From the NCBI GenBank assembly GCA_009392915.1, contig CP045477.1:192001-256000 (forward strand): a stretch of 64,000 nucleotides of DNA, written 5' to 3'. A program made the position numbers and the translations under genes. The first letter of the stretch is position 1, and every line of letters starts with the position of its first letter. Positions 18,746 through 37,673 of this stretch are shown here, in pieces. The stretch is from Candidatus Forterrea multitransposorum CG_2015-17_Forterrea_25_41 (lineage in GTDB: Archaea > Iainarchaeota > Iainarchaeia > Iainarchaeales > CSSED10-239). The notes beneath the pieces are model-generated. The model worked only from the letters and a program-made list of their open reading frames with translations, was not told where the DNA came from and did not search any database.

Positions 18746-18827
18746 GCAGGGGTTCCCGAGTGGTCAAAGGGGCACGGCTAAGAACCGTGTGCTTAGTGCT
18801 TCGCAGGTTCGAATCCTGTCCCTTGCA
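18746..18827 (+). tRNA. tRNA-Leu (type II, long variable arm); anticodon loop CTAAGAA reads as AAG (unusual A34)
   Basis: Acceptor GCAGGGG/CCCTTGC, anticodon stem CACGG/CCGTG, long variable arm TGCTTAGTGCTTCGCA, T arm AGG?-TTCGAAT; D-loop AGTGGTCAAA typical of Leu. Confidence 0.7.
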
Positions 18828-18843
18828 TTATATTTTTTTAAAT

Positions 18844-18917
18844 GCTCGAATAGTGTAGCCCGGTAATCATATCAGACTCTCACTCTGATGACGGGGGTTC
18901 GAATCCCCCTTCGAGCA
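18844..18917 (+). tRNA. tRNA-Glu (anticodon CTC)
   Basis: Acceptor GCTCGAA/TTCGAGC, D region TAGTGTAGCCCGGTAATCAT typical of archaeal tRNA-Glu, anticodon arm TCAGA-CTCTCAC-TCTGA, T arm GGGGG-TTCGAAT-CCCCC. Confidence 0.8.
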
Positions 18918-18972
18918 CTTATAATATTTTTTAAAAATCTATTTAATAACTTAAATTTGTAATTACTTAATT

Positions 18973-30388: not shown

Positions 30389-32806
30389 GTGTATGAAAAT
30401 ATGAATAAAGACAAATATATTTTATGGTTTAAAGAAATTTCAATTGAAGATGTTCCTATTGTTGGAGGAAAAAATGCATCTTTAGGAGAAATGTATAGAA
30501 ATTTAACTAAAAAAGGAGTTTCAATTCCTAATGGTTTTGCAATAACTGCTGATGCTTATAGATATTTACTTGAAAAAGATAAAATTTCACAAGAGATAAA
30601 ATCAACTTTAAAAGATTTAGATGTAAATAATTTAAAACAACTTTCAGAAAAAGGTTCTAAAATAAGAAAAATGATTAGAACTGCAGAAATTCCTCAAGAT
30701 CTTGAAAAACAAATTATTGATTCTTATTATACTTTATCAAAACAAGAGAAAACAAAAGAACTTGATGTTGCTGTAAGATCTTCTGCAACTGCTGAAGATT
30801 TGCCTGATGCTTCATTTGCTGGACAACAAGAAACTTATTTAAACATTAGAGGCCCTGAAGAGCTTTTAGATGCTTGTAAAAAATGTTTTGCTTCACTTTT
30901 CACAAATAGAGCAATAGCTTACAGAGTAGAAAAGAAATTTGATCACACAAAAGTTGCTCTTTCAATAACTGTTCAAAAAATGGTAAGAAGTGATTTAGCA
31001 TCTTCAGGTGTAATGTTTTCAATAGATACAGAAACTGGTTTTAGAGATGCTGTAGTTATTAATGGTGCTTATGGTCTTGGAGAAAATGTTGTTCAAGGTG
31101 CTGTTAATCCTGATGAATTTATGGTTTTTAAACCTACATTAAAACAAGGAAAGAATGCTATAATTTCAAAAAGACTTGGTGAAAAAGCAATTAAAATGGT
31201 TTATGATACTCAAGGTAATAAACCTGTTAAAAATATAAATGTTGATATTAATCATAGAAATCAATTTTGTATAACTGATAAAGATGTTATTACTTTAGCA
31301 AAATGGGCTTGTATTATTGAAGATTATTATTCTCAAAAAGCAGGACACTATAAACCAATGGATATGGAATGGGCAATTGATGGTGTTACTAAAAAAGTAT
31401 ATATTGTTCAAGCAAGACCAGAAACTGTTCAATCAAATAAAAATTTAAGTCAAATTGAAACCTATTCTATTTTAGAAGAGAAAGAAGCAATAGTTACAGG
31501 TATTTCAATTGGTCAAAAAATAGCAACAGGAAATGCTTCAATTATTAAAGATGTAAAAGATATTAATAAATTTAAAAAAGGAGATATCTTAATTACAGAA
31601 ATGACAGATCCTGATTGGGTACCTATTATGAAAATTGCTTCAGGTATTGTTACAAACAAAGGAGGAAAAACTTGTCATGCTGCAATTATTGCAAGAGAAC
31701 TTGGAATACCTTGTATTGTTGGAACAATAGATGCTACTTTAAAAATAAAAGATAAGTCTCCAATAACAATTGATTGTTCATCAGGAGATTATGGTTTTGT
31801 GTATGAAGGAACTTTAAAGTTTAAAAAAGATGTTCAAGATATTAAAAAAATACCTATAACAAAAACAAAAATAATGTTAAATGTTGGAAATCCAGAACAA
31901 GCTTTAGAACAATCTTTCCTTCCAGCAGATGGTGTAGGTCTTGCAAGAGAAGAATTTATTATTAATTCTTGGATAAAAATACATCCTTTAGCTTTAATTA
32001 ACTATAATAAAATAAAAGATAAAAAAGTAAAAGAAGAAATAGATAAGTTAACAATAGGGTATAGTAATAAAGTAGATTATTTTGTAGATAAATTATCTCA
32101 AGGTATTGCAAGAATAGCTGCTGCTTTTTATCCTAAAAAAGTTATCTTAAGAACTTCTGATTTTAAGACAGATGAGTATGCAAATTTAATTGGTGGAAAA
32201 GAATATGAACCAATTGAATCTAATCCAATGCTTGGATGGAGAGGTGCTTCAAGATATTATCAAGGAAACTATAGAGAAGGTTTTGCTTTAGAGTGTAAGG
32301 CTATTAAAAGAGTTAGAGAAGATATGGGTCTTACAAATTTAGAAGTAATGATACCTTTTTGTAGAACACTTGATGAAGCTAAAAAAGTAATTGCTGAACT
32401 TAAGAAAAATGGTTTAGAACAAGGTAAAAATGGTCTTAAAGTTATTGGTATGTGTGAGATTCCTTCAAATGTAATTTTAGCTGAAGAATTTTTAAATATC
32501 TTTGATGGTTTTTCAATAGGTTCAAATGACTTAACACAATTAACTTTAGGTCTTGATAGAAATTCAGAAATTGTTGCAAGTATTTATGATGAAAGAAATC
32601 CTGCAGTAAAGGAACTTATTACAAATGTTGTAAAGATTGCAAAAAAGAAAAAGAAATACATAGGTATCTGTGGACAAGCACCTTCTGATTATCCTGACTT
32701 TGCTGAGTTTTTAGTATCTATTGGTATTGATTCTATGAGTTTAAATCCAGATACTTTAATTAAGACAAAAATATTAGTTGCAAACAAAGAAAAATCTAAA
32801 AAATAG
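30389..32806 (+). CDS. ppsA: Phosphoenolpyruvate synthase (pyruvate, water dikinase)
   Basis: 805-aa ORF; N-terminal ATP-grasp region, mobile phospho-His domain GGKTCHAAIIARELGIPCIVG, C-terminal PEP-utilising TIM barrel (MLGWRGASRY...GSNDLTQL). Confidence 0.9.
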   Translation: MYENMNKDKYILWFKEISIEDVPIVGGKNASLGEMYRNLTKKGVSIPNGFAITADAYRYLLEKDKISQEIKSTLKDLDVNNLKQLSEKGSKIRKMIRTAEIPQDLEKQIIDSYYTLSKQEKTKELDVAVRSSATAEDLPDASFAGQQETYLNIRGPEELLDACKKCFASLFTNRAIAYRVEKKFDHTKVALSITVQKMVRSDLASSGVMFSIDTETGFRDAVVINGAYGLGENVVQGAVNPDEFMVFKPTLKQGKNAIISKRLGEKAIKMVYDTQGNKPVKNINVDINHRNQFCITDKDVITLAKWACIIEDYYSQKAGHYKPMDMEWAIDGVTKKVYIVQARPETVQSNKNLSQIETYSILEEKEAIVTGISIGQKIATGNASIIKDVKDINKFKKGDILITEMTDPDWVPIMKIASGIVTNKGGKTCHAAIIARELGIPCIVGTIDATLKIKDKSPITIDCSSGDYGFVYEGTLKFKKDVQDIKKIPITKTKIMLNVGNPEQALEQSFLPADGVGLAREEFIINSWIKIHPLALINYNKIKDKKVKEEIDKLTIGYSNKVDYFVDKLSQGIARIAAAFYPKKVILRTSDFKTDEYANLIGGKEYEPIESNPMLGWRGASRYYQGNYREGFALECKAIKRVREDMGLTNLEVMIPFCRTLDEAKKVIAELKKNGLEQGKNGLKVIGMCEIPSNVILAEEFLNIFDGFSIGSNDLTQLTLGLDRNSEIVASIYDERNPAVKELITNVVKIAKKKKKYIGICGQAPSDYPDFAEFLVSIGIDSMSLNPDTLIKTKILVANKEKSKK

Positions 32807-34041: not shown

Positions 34042-34108
34042 TTCTTTTTTTTCTTTTTTTTTACAAACATATAAATACTTTATTGTGTATATTTATTTAT
34101 AAGATAAA

Positions 34109-34301
34109 GGGGACATGGGGTAGCCAGGTTAACCTTACAGGCTCCAGATATTTTTTAAATTAGAAAGTAATCTGGAACGCAGGATGTTTTTTTTTAAAAA
34201 AAACAGATGATTGATATTATACAGGTTTGTTTAATTTTATATTTATATAAAATTGAAATAGGAGAAACCTGTAGACCCGGGTTCGAATCCCGGTGTCCCC
34301 A
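34109..34301 (+). tRNA. tRNA-Trp (anticodon CCA) with a ~119-nt intron at the canonical 37/38 position
   Basis: 5' exon GGGGACA-TG-GGGT...ACCT-T-ACAGG-CTCCAG (34109-34147); 3' exon A-CCTGT-AGAC-CCGGG-TTCGAAT-CCCGG-TGTCCCC-A (34267-34301); intervening AT-rich 34148-34266. Confidence 0.75.
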
Positions 34302-34340
34302 TATCTTTCTTTTTTTATAAATTTTAAATTTTGATTATAA

Positions 34341-35324
34341 ATGATTTTTAGCTATTCTTCTTTTTTTAGTATTAAGCATGAAGATTTAAAAATAAATTTT
34401 GATCAAAATAAAGCTTGTTCTTTAGATGAATATCTTTTTTTAACACATGCACATACAGATCATGTTTGTAATACTTCTCAAAAGACTTTTGCAACTAAAG
34501 AAACTATTTCTCTTTTAGAGAATAGATATGATAATAATAAATTTAATTTTATAGAACTTGAATATAATAAACCATATTTTCTTAAAGCCGATTTTAAAGT
34601 TACTGCTTTAAATGCTGGACATATTTTAGGCAGTTCAATGTTTTTATTTGAAACTAATGATACATCTTTACTTTACACTGGAGATTTTAACACTAAAGAT
34701 TCTATTCTTTTAAAAGGTGCAAAACCAGTTATTGCAGATTATTTAGTTATTGATTCAACTTTTGGAAGAGAAGAGTTTTATTTTAAAGAAAGAAGTTTAG
34801 TTTATGATGATTTATTAAAAAAAATAAAACAAGATCTTTTTGAAAATAAATTTATAATTCTTGCAGGATATTCTTTAGGTAAAAATCAAGAAATAATTGC
34901 TTTTTTAAATAAATATCTAAATATAACTCCTTTAGTTGATAAAGAAACATATAGGTATTCTAAAATATATAACACCCATAATAATAATTTAAATTTTATT
35001 CTTTTAGATCATAATATTTATTCTTCAAATGTTTTAGTTATGCCTTTATCTTTAATGAATAGAAATTTAATTAAAAGTTTAGAACATCAAATCTATAAAA
35101 AAATATCTCCTTATGTTCTAACAGGTTGGAAATATTCAAGAGGAGCAAATCTTGTAAATGTTTCTGATCATTGTGATTTTAATTCTTTATTAGATTTTAT
35201 AAATGTTGTAAATCCTAAAAAAGTATTTACAATTCATGGTTTTACTAAAGATTTTGCAGATAGTATTAATTATAAGTTAGGAATTGAGGCTCAATGTGTT
35301 TCTTCCTTAAATAAAAAACTTTAA
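34341..35324 (+). CDS. Metallo-beta-lactamase fold hydrolase (possibly beta-CASP-like nuclease)
   Basis: 327-aa ORF with THAHTDH (HxHxDH) motif, later NAGHILGS His, VSDHCD and TIHGF motifs. Confidence 0.5.
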   Translation: MIFSYSSFFSIKHEDLKINFDQNKACSLDEYLFLTHAHTDHVCNTSQKTFATKETISLLENRYDNNKFNFIELEYNKPYFLKADFKVTALNAGHILGSSMFLFETNDTSLLYTGDFNTKDSILLKGAKPVIADYLVIDSTFGREEFYFKERSLVYDDLLKKIKQDLFENKFIILAGYSLGKNQEIIAFLNKYLNITPLVDKETYRYSKIYNTHNNNLNFILLDHNIYSSNVLVMPLSLMNRNLIKSLEHQIYKKISPYVLTGWKYSRGANLVNVSDHCDFNSLLDFINVVNPKKVFTIHGFTKDFADSINYKLGIEAQCVSSLNKKL

Positions 35325-36384: not shown

Positions 36385-36606
36385 ATGGCTAATATGACTT
36401 TAAGTATACCTGATGATCTTTTAAAAGAATTAAAAAAACACTCTTATATTAAATGGAGTGAAGTTGCAAGAATTGCTTTTGAAGAAAAGGTAAGTGCTTT
36501 AGAAAGAATAGATGTTTTTAAAGAATTTCAAGAAGCTGAAAGAGATTTTAAAGATGGAAAAAGTATTTCTTTAGAACAATTAAAAAAGGAACTTGGTAAA
36601 AAATGA
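36385..36606 (+). CDS. Small ribbon-helix-helix (CopG/antitoxin-like) DNA-binding protein
   Basis: 73-aa ORF, N-term MTLSIPDDLLKELKK beta-strand + helix pattern; stop overlaps start of next gene (ATGA). Confidence 0.4.
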   Translation: MANMTLSIPDDLLKELKKHSYIKWSEVARIAFEEKVSALERIDVFKEFQEAERDFKDGKSISLEQLKKELGKK

Positions 36607-37673
36607 TTGAAGAAGAAATTGTAAATTTAATTTCAAAGATTTATGAAAAAAACCAAAGTGTTGTATCTATTTTTAAAGAAAATAATTTTTCTTTACAAAA
36701 GTCATTTTATAATCCTGAAGAAAATATAATTAATCCTATTGTTATTGAAAAAAATCAAAATTTATCATTTTTAGGAGTTGATTCTGGTTTTGTAAATAAA
36801 CAATTTAATTTTGCAAATTTAATTATTATTAAAGAAGCAGGAGCTTTATTTAATTATAAAGATTCAAAACTTTCTTCTGTTAAATATTTTCCAAAAATAT
36901 ATAATATTGCAAAACCATATCTTACAACTTCTTCTTTAGAAATTGAAGAAATTATTTGGAATACTTCTATTCTAAGGCTTAAAAAAGAACTTTCTCTTTC
37001 AAAAAAAATTATGGAATCTGAAAAAGTAAATTTTTCTTTAATAGATGGTTCTATTATTCCTCAATATTTATCTAAACCTTCAAAAGATTCAAAATATTAT
37101 AAAGATTATTCTTTTCTTTTATCCTTATTTTTTTCACTTTATGAAATTTCTAAAAATAAAAAAATATTTTTAGTAGGGTGTGTTGAAGATTCTAGAGCTG
37201 ATAGATTTTTTAATATTTTAAAAAATAATTATTTTAAAGATAAAATAAATTTTGATCTTTCAGATTCTTTTTTAGTATTTTCTCTTCTTTCAAAAAATCA
37301 AAGAACTTGTGTTTTTAGATATACTGATGATTTAAGAGAGCATCCTATCTTAAAAGATTTTCCAAAAGAAATTGTTGATAATTTATATGTTTGTTATTTA
37401 AAGCTTTCAGAAGAGGATTATCCTTTAAGAATAGAATTTATTTATTTTAAAGAATTTGGAATGTCTTTAAAAGAATATACAGATTATATAATTTCAAATA
37501 TTGCGTCTATCTCTTCTTTTAATAAAAGATATATATATCCTGCACCATTAATTGAAGCTGATTTACAGAGTAGACTAAAAATACAAGAAATTGATTTATT
37601 GGTTAGAAATTTTCTTGAAAAAACTAAAAAGTTTGGTCTTAAAGTGCCAAGAAGAGAAGCAAGGTCTTTTTGA
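36603..37673 (+). CDS. Hypothetical protein, possible NurA-like nuclease domain
   Basis: 356-aa ORF translationally coupled to upstream RHH gene; motifs FLGVDSGF, LIDGSIIPQ and GCVEDSRADRF reminiscent of NurA-family acidic motifs; tentative. Confidence 0.3.
   Translation: MIEEEIVNLISKIYEKNQSVVSIFKENNFSLQKSFYNPEENIINPIVIEKNQNLSFLGVDSGFVNKQFNFANLIIIKEAGALFNYKDSKLSSVKYFPKIYNIAKPYLTTSSLEIEEIIWNTSILRLKKELSLSKKIMESEKVNFSLIDGSIIPQYLSKPSKDSKYYKDYSFLLSLFFSLYEISKNKKIFLVGCVEDSRADRFFNILKNNYFKDKINFDLSDSFLVFSLLSKNQRTCVFRYTDDLREHPILKDFPKEIVDNLYVCYLKLSEEDYPLRIEFIYFKEFGMSLKEYTDYIISNIASISSFNKRYIYPAPLIEADLQSRLKIQEIDLLVRNFLEKTKKFGLKVPRREARSF

Follow-up and report, generated by a model that had tools for sequence, protein, structure and literature searches.

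The long intron of a tRNA-Trp gene in a low-GC Iainarchaeote and its likely kinship with box C/D guide introns

In Euryarchaeota the intron of tRNA-Trp is reported to carry a box C/D guide RNA, on record since 2000-2001 (Clouet d'Orval et al. 2001, Singh et al. 2004), which methylates C34 and U39 by way of two duplexes bridging the exon-intron junctions. A stretch of 64,000 nucleotides (nt) from the DPANN archaeon Candidatus Forterrea multitransposorum (contig CP045477.1, positions 192,001 to 256,000; hereafter the window) raises the question of whether a comparable element occurs outside that group. At 34109-34301 on the + strand, which also carries the other features given coordinates below, lies a tRNA-Trp(CCA) gene interrupted by a 119-nt intron. 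Is this a working gene, and is its intron a guide RNA, the remains of one, or an inert insert? On balance we favour the reading that the gene is functional and that its intron is a diverged relative of the C/D guides found in other tRNA-Trp introns.

The interrupted tRNA-Trp gene

The original prediction, made from the sequence alone, placed a tRNA-Trp(CCA) gene at 34109-34301, with an intron of about 119 nt (34148-34266) at position 37/38. ARAGORN run with intron search (ARAGORN -i) recovers the same gene with a 119-nt intron, and a bulge-helix-bulge (BHB) structure sets the intron edges at 34148 and 34266, the canonical 37/38 position. Exon 1 (34109-34147) supplies tRNA positions 1-37, with the anticodon CCA at 34144-34146, and ends in the anticodon stem strand ACAGG followed by the loop bases CUCCAG. 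Exon 2 (34267-34301) supplies positions 38-73 and has no encoded CCA; it runs from A-CCUGU through the T arm CCGGG-UUCGAAU-CCCGG and the acceptor strand to the discriminator A. In the ARAGORN -i output the joined exons give a complete 74-nt tRNA-Trp(cca) cloverleaf that has a G1-C72 pair, A73 as its discriminator, and the loops CUCCAGA (anticodon) and UUCGAAU (T). The minimum free energy (MFE) structure of the spliced tRNA from ViennaRNA is not a cloverleaf; MFE folds of tRNAs other than the cloverleaf are common, and this result was not weighed against the gene.

The check for a BHB at the exon-intron junctions, proposed together with the gene, finds a canonical hBHBh' motif. Its 5' half (34142-34154) consists of CUCC (34142-45), the bulge AGA (34146-48) and the h' strand UAUUUU (34149-54), and its 3' half (34255-34267) of the h' strand GAAAUA (34255-60), GGAG (34261-64) and the bulge AAA (34265-67). 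In the 4-bp central helix C32-U33-C34-C35 pairs with GGAG, and the two 3-nt bulges, A36-G37-A and A-A-A38, lie on opposite strands. The outer helix h is the 5-bp anticodon stem (34137-41 with 34268-72), and the inner helix h' (34149-54 with 34255-60) has five Watson-Crick pairs and one G.U pair. Cutting after the second base of each bulge, that is after 34147 and after 34266, yields the mature loop CUCCAGA. The junction given by ARAGORN lies two bases earlier; the cut set by the BHB follows G37.

Could the interrupted tRNA nonetheless be nonfunctional, either as a pseudogene or as an artefact of assembly? Two observations lean that way. Standard detectors overlook the locus: the gene at 34109-34301 is missed by default ARAGORN and by the Rfam tRNA model at its gathering threshold, both of which call four other tRNAs in the window. 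Nor is a second tRNA-Trp visible to ARAGORN -i in the window, which spans only 64 kb. Against this, the cloverleaf and the BHB are both perfect, the same arrangement recurs in independent assemblies and in metagenomes, and the exons are unchanged among species-level genomes while the introns drift. The mature tRNA is identical at 74 of 74 positions in three further genomes (L115, Ca. ainarchaeum sp.; L040, Diapherotrites; L003, Ca. Iainarchaeum) and two contigs from metagenomes (L127 and L136); identity of their introns to that of the window is 77-95%. The gene order LemA - tRNA-Trp - metallo-beta-lactamase (MBL)/RMMBL hydrolase - HtpX is held across the clade, with the MBL protein down to 44% identity. 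That the exons stay constant while the introns of an orthologous locus diverge speaks for a working gene rather than a pseudogene or an artefact. We consider it nearly certain that it is a real, spliced tRNA-Trp gene of a low-GC Iainarchaeote (DPANN), and very improbable that it is nonfunctional.

The MBL-fold gene itself (34341-35324) begins 40 nt downstream of the tRNA and encodes a 327-aa protein with an RMMBL 'RNA specificity' domain, beta-CASP-like in type. Throughout the clade, down to the same 44% identity, this gene adjoins the intron-containing tRNA-Trp.

A predicted K-turn and two antisense elements in the intron

Read from 5' to 3', the core of the intron consists of AUCUGGA (34170-76), ACG, CAGGA (34180-84), an A/U hairpin (34185-34205), GAU (34206-08), GAUUGA (34209-14), a 5-nt gap UAUUA (34215-19), UACAGGUUU (34220-28), a single G and a 12-bp hairpin (34230-57), followed by the h' strand and GGAG. 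Its central part has the make-up of a kink-turn (K-turn). The D-like box CAGGA (34180-34184) would be the non-bulged strand; 22 distinct relatives show no variation in its C, A, G and A. The A/U hairpin (34185-34205; -5.2 kcal/mol), which would form the C-stem, pairs U34185 with A34205 and G34186 with C34204, continues with six U-A pairs and closes on a 5-nt loop. There follow (34206-34214) the 3-nt bulge GAU and GAUUGA, the C-like box being AUGAUUGA at 34207-14. G34209.A34184 and A34210.G34183 are the tandem sheared pairs, and beyond them stand U34211.G34182, U34212-A34181 and G34213-C34180. The first base of the bulge varies between G, A and U in relatives, and the A-U-G-A-.-U-G-A of the C-like box is invariant. 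Helix, 3-nt bulge and tandem sheared G.A pairs are thus all present at the level of sequence, and we read D-like box, hairpin, GAU bulge and C-like box as a single predicted K-turn with one extra pair, to which L7Ae would be expected to bind.

This reading was examined in a fixed-register alignment of 22 distinct sequences of the window clade. Paired cells of the K-turn make up 97.9% against 86% in shuffles, none of 500 shuffles reaching 97.9%, and controls slid out of register pair at 32-49%; these figures come from mutually related sequences, extracted with a pattern that fixed CA.GA and GA[CT]TGA. All six counted hairpin pairs (6/6) show changes on both sides, and the extra K-turn pair 34211-34182 covaries (GC 14, AU 5, GU 2, other or unpaired 1).

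Two C-box-like elements had been quoted in the original prediction, and both are present, AGATGATTGA at 34205-14 and GGATGT at 34182-87. The first was well chosen, in that its AGAUGAUUGA is the box C homologue, as aligned by the model of canonical relatives described below. The second does not survive as a C-box-like element: its GA is that of CAGGA, and the UG that follows opens the hairpin stem. Several other assignments were tried and rejected. GGAUGU (34182-87) as a C box with UUGA (34211-14) has flanks that fail to make the required K-turn stem. A register with the hairpin as non-canonical stem and a sheared G34206-A34207 pair founders on position 34206, which varies between G, A and U in relatives. 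A terminal C box UAGAAAG (34161-67), about 12 nt upstream of the D-like box, and UUGA at 34253-56 as a D box are both unconserved among relatives.

The wider comparison rests on a scan of species-representative genomes for the 3' BHB strand together with exon 2 (GGAGNNACCTG...GGGTTCRAATCCC), which gave at least 120 loci. Among the matches listed, 66 of 120 are tRNA-Trp genes with introns of 38-294 nt by ARAGORN -i, and most of these long-intron genes have canonical CUGA and AUGAYGA boxes. The listed source lineages are mostly DPANN (Iainarchaeum/Diapherotrites, Micrarchaeota, Altiarchaeota, Aenigmatarchaeota, Nanohaloarchaea and Nanoarchaeia). The occurrence of such a gene in a DPANN-like genome, initially thought notable, is on these counts unexceptional. 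A further 27 loci came from metagenomes through a pattern that leaves the informative positions free, and the set compared comprises 78 distinct tRNA-Trp introns from genomes and metagenomes, again mostly DPANN. Four contigs with BHB-intron tRNAs are binned as Campylobacterales, Gracilibacteria, Deltaproteobacteria and Bacteroidetes (L099, L109, L008 and L105); they are probably mis-binned archaeal DNA.

In archaeal C/D guides the boxes are separated by a spacer of about 12 nt and the target nucleotide lies opposite the 5th nt upstream of box D or D'. The first antisense element of the intron (g34), AUCUGGA at 34170-34176, is complementary to U33-G37 together with bases 1 and 2 of the intron; the partner of C34, G34175, is the 5th nt upstream of C34180. 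This element stands at a fixed distance from the box in the window and in L003, L040, L093, L022, L132 and L144, and is kept in L137 too. Intron base 2 and its partner in g34 vary together, the pair being A-U in the window group and G-C in L132 and L016. Of the 78 introns, 47 have the base opposite C34 at exactly 5 nt upstream of NNGA, a motif expected at a given fixed offset with a chance of about 1/16; the box in those 47 is CUGA in 29 and CCGA in 5, the rest being AGGA, CGGA, CAGA, AAGA, AUGA or UUGA. The window type, in which the box is a derived one of 5 nt and the C34 partner lies 5 nt upstream of C-N-N-G-A, accounts for 10 of the 78. In three Micrarchaeum-like introns (L021, L023 and L026) the hairpin is followed by GAUGACUGA, as in the window clade, and the D boxes, AAGA or CGGA, are 4 nt long and stand at N+5; this form of a remodelled K-turn could be independent or intermediate.

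The second antisense element (g39), UACAGGUUU at 34220-34228, is complementary to A38-A44 and the two intron bases before them (34265-34273), with G34225 opposite C39. Its pair with the last intron base covaries in the 22 sequences (AU 11, UA 8, CG 1, GC 1, other 1). Because that partner is a bulge base otherwise free of constraint, it is this comparison that settles the significance of g39. Both antisense duplexes bridge an exon-intron junction. Of the two things that the original prediction had proposed to look for, stretches complementary to the anticodon region are found, and consensus C/D boxes are not.

Behind g39, where Euryarchaeota have box D' (CUGA), stands a 12-bp A/U hairpin (34230-34257; -6.4 kcal/mol, z -5.1), the first base of which follows the partner of nt 39 at a distance of exactly 5 nt. 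Of the roughly 44 introns that carry a hairpin in this place, 30 begin the stem at +5 from that partner (or at +4, with one extra pair), and the hairpin sequences differ. The D' position reads UUUA in the window and CUAA or CUAG in its cousins, and forms the first strand of the hairpin. We rejected CUAA, CUAG and UUUA at N+5 from nt 39 as a degenerate D' box, as they are without the G of GA and belong to a strand of the conserved hairpin. The last three pairs of the hairpin (34255-57) overlap the first three positions of the h' strand, so that the two structures compete; such competition could contribute to a switch between a guide form and a splicing form.

Descent, possible function and genomic setting

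Canonical DPANN introns share a module of the form guide34-CUGA-hairpin-R-AUGA(U/C)GA-12 nt ending in guide39. A covariance model (R1) built from 18 such modules aligns with 34168-34229 of the window over its full length; each box takes up a single added base (C-a-GGA and GAUGAU-u-GA), and the spacer is longer by three. In this alignment AGAUGAUUGA is aligned to GAUGAcGA with one U inserted. On our reading, the place of the U.U in a standard C/D K-turn would here be taken by two Watson-Crick pairs, through compensated insertions. We conclude that the intron probably holds a conserved K-turn and two junction-spanning antisense elements descended from a C/D guide. The link to the tRNA-Trp intron guide that the original prediction had drawn is therefore upheld, while guide activity in this intron is putative and made less likely by its non-canonical boxes and spacing.

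How might such an intron work? The antisense stretches would open the anticodon stem and the BHB, either in the unspliced transcript or in trans once the intron has been cut out and circularised. L7Ae would bind the K-turn, Nop5 and fibrillarin would assemble, and the 3' hairpin would substitute for the missing C'/D' motif. Ribose (2'-O) methylation would then be directed to C34 and possibly to nt 39 (C39), whether in cis or through the excised, probably circular intron acting in trans. With the RNA refolded to the BHB form, the splicing endonuclease would cut after 34147 and 34266, and the exons would be ligated. The unconstrained fold, with both antisense duplexes, comes to -64.8 kcal/mol, against -49.4 kcal/mol for the cloverleaf plus BHB. 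Fibrillarin, Nop5 and L7Ae are listed as near-universal single-copy markers of archaea, DPANN included (PMC9258230). A regex search of the window for canonical C/D sRNAs returned nothing convincing. That the intron is still an active methylation guide in the window lineage is something we propose tentatively, at somewhat less than an even chance and from sequence comparison.

A number of results weigh against an active guide, and some against guide ancestry as well. A motif search finds neither a perfect RUGAUGA nor a perfect CUGA in the intron, the lack of the latter as originally described; the best box C candidate, AUGAUUGA, is the consensus with one inserted U, and CAGGA (34180-84) stands in place of box D. 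Rfam C/D families give no match in 34050-34360 up to E = 10, a threshold permissive enough to admit noise. The R1 match scores 9.9 bits (E 0.009 in 211 nt), which is non-significant, and is missed in a search of the whole window; the score being low, homology rests on collinearity and context. If the count starts from the GA-based NNGA core of the D-like box, the base opposite C34 stands 6th upstream and not 5th, and L137 is one base shorter before the box, so that the register of the C34 partner is not uniform. The spacer from C-like box to stem (34214 to 34230) is 15 nt, against 12 in canonical DPANN relatives. As to a second motif (C'/D'), no conserved C' box is present upstream of g34 in the aligned relatives. 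The g34 element is absent from 16 of the 78 introns, of which 15 are close cousins of the window; the loss has the appearance of relaxed selection for methylation. A motif screen of the 64-kb window finds no gene for fibrillarin, Nop5, L7Ae, EndA or RtcB. Finally, taken singly and within the window, neither antisense stretch is significant: dinucleotide shuffles of the intron interior reach the observed lengths of g34 and g39 in 16% and 7.5% of cases, and both together in 0.8%.

The shuffles also bear on an alternative, namely that the intron is passive: only its BHB would matter, and the box-like and antisense stretches would be chance features of an A/T-rich insert. The fold of the whole intron, with a z-score of -1.3, the lack of an Rfam match and the 25% G+C of the window are in keeping with this. 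What tells against it is the comparative evidence. The hairpin and the extra K-turn pair covary, as does g39 with a free bulge base; GA/GA and the A-U of the bulge stay fixed in 22 distinct sequences amid varying surroundings; and the arrangement is collinear with the canonical CUGA/AUGAYGA modules of other DPANN phyla. The passive-intron reading is accordingly disfavoured, and we think it quite improbable.

The main rival to active guiding is a relic guide, in which methylation has been lost in the low-GC clade and K-turn, g39 and hairpin are kept for another job: an L7Ae-bound, exon-paired intron might aid pre-tRNA folding, time or license splicing, or stabilise the circular intron. The 16 cousin introns speak for this, as they retain the K-turn, the 3' antisense and the hairpin yet lack the C34 antisense, and so do the non-canonical boxes and spacer and a D' position (CUAA, CUAG or UUUA) without GA. 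The BHB form lies 15 kcal/mol above the fold that uses both antisense duplexes, and the intron could therefore gate splicing. H. volcanii, according to papers citing Joardar et al. 2008, can grow without the intron and its methylations. The relic reading fits less well with the window group, in whose sublineages g34 stands at a constant distance from the box, with compensation at intron base 2, or with the placing of the stem, at +5 counted from the base opposite nt 39, which is what a methylation ruler would need; and the literature consulted documents no chaperone role for a K-turn intron. We regard a relic guide as possible though rather unlikely.

The locus bears on several questions. For annotation, long BHB introns hide tRNA-Trp from default finders. 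Published surveys list tRNA-Trp as missing from DPANN genomes; these absences may be failures of detection, for which introns of 38-294 nt are a likely reason. For RNA biology, the euryarchaeal tRNA-Trp intron guide proves to be widespread in DPANN archaea, in a rearranged form with a single K-turn. For evolution, the window clade offers a graded series, from canonical boxes through the compensated K-turn insertion to loss of the C34 antisense, which lets one ask what selects for a guide-like intron once guiding erodes.

Two further neighbours of the locus look like ordinary housekeeping context. Upstream, at 30389-32806, lies an 805-aa open reading frame (ORF), 74-98% identical in relatives, which from its sequence we take to be a candidate phosphoenolpyruvate synthase or pyruvate-phosphate dikinase; downstream of HtpX, at 36603-37673, is a NurA-domain ORF. 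The tRNA-Leu, tRNA-Glu, tRNA-His and tRNA-Thr genes of the window are all intronless, and tRNA-Leu(aag) and tRNA-Glu(ctc) stand in tandem at 18746-18918, 16 nt apart, and are probably co-transcribed.

Layout in relation to known systems

Twenty-seven tRNA-Trp intron guides have been tabulated, from haloarchaea, methanogens, Thermococcales, Archaeoglobus, Thermoplasmatales and one Pyrobaculum, with the order stem-C-guide39-D'-loop-C'-guide34-D-stem and 12-nt spacers (PMC2584109). Within our compared set this euryarchaeal layout also occurs in Thermoplasmata L074 and in Nitrososphaeria L057, L084 and L103. The window has a different order, guide34-D~hairpin~C-guide39-stem, which is not that of the sR50 type: guide34 leads into box D and guide39 leads out of box C. 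As judged from the order of its elements, the DPANN layout is a circular permutation of the euryarchaeal one, in which a loop closes the stem of the strong K-turn and the C'/D' side is open to the intron ends. We found no description of this layout for DPANN tRNA-Trp in the searchable literature, which omits most subscription journals and so does not prove its absence. Side by side with it, four introns (L050 and L112, both Ca. Nanoarchaeia STD1_89, L102 and L110) have the nt-39 antisense first, followed by CUGA, UUGA or CAGA at N+5; these are in euryarchaeal order, and DPANN genomes thus have both layouts.

With the euryarchaeal intron guide (Haloferax volcanii; Pyrococcus sR50) the window shares the same tRNA, a BHB at 37/38 whose geometry is that of H. 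volcanii pre-tRNA-Trp, an unusually long intron, two junction-spanning antisense elements over C34 and nt 39, and a K-turn made from C- and D-type boxes. Around the nt-39 guide the likeness extends to the letters, Pyrococcus having ...GGGUUUG-CUGA, the window ...AGGUUUG-UUUA and its cousins ...GGUAUG-CUAA/CUAG. The window differs in its permuted order and single K-turn, in having CAGGA and AUGAUUGA for CUGA and UGAUGA, in a spacer of 15 and not 12 nt, and in a nt 39 that is C and not U. Closer at hand are the canonical DPANN introns (L062, L009, L019 and L044 among them) of Altiarchaeota, Nanohaloarchaeota, Micrarchaeota and other Iainarchaeota, whose order is identical to that of the window, with the hairpin right behind guide39. 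Those introns have CUGA/CCGA and AUGA(U/C)GA boxes, a 12-nt spacer and GC-rich stems, whereas the window clade has the extra K-turn pair and a 14-16-nt spacer, and g34 is missing in many of its members.

A second natural parallel is Nanoarchaeum equitans, for which a stable C/D-like sRNA in a tRNA-Met intron and permuted or circular C/D sRNAs have been described (Randau 2012, PMC3491384). As in the window, a tRNA intron of a DPANN archaeon harbours an RNA that is box C/D-like; the case differs in that the tRNA is elongator Met, the intron is 66 nt long, and the boxes are a consensus D and a near-consensus C. A double junction-spanning antisense is unreported there.

The role that we assign to the 3' hairpin has its counterpart in engineered guides. 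When a stem replaces one C/D motif, the 5th nt upstream of the stem is reported to be selected (Wang, Yang & Ye 2022, PMC9670817), and half-mers with a single K-turn are described as efficient and specific in vitro when L7Ae is present (PMC9670817). The same authors raise the question of whether there are natural archaeal guides with one motif swapped for a stem (PMC9670817). One could suppose that the DPANN tRNA-Trp introns, that of the window included, are just such natural guides, so far met only in engineered form, with one true K-turn, a stem replacing the second motif, a 5-nt ruler to nt 39 and a permuted order, the K-turn being remodelled in the window clade by a compensated one-bp insertion; taken as a whole, this is in our view rather less likely than not. 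The engineered guides (RNA 28:1597) are synthetic, with Sulfolobus proteins and 12-nt spacers, and the role of the stem in the window is drawn from its position. The DPANN introns are a natural test case for the stem-replacement question of Wang, Yang & Ye (2022).

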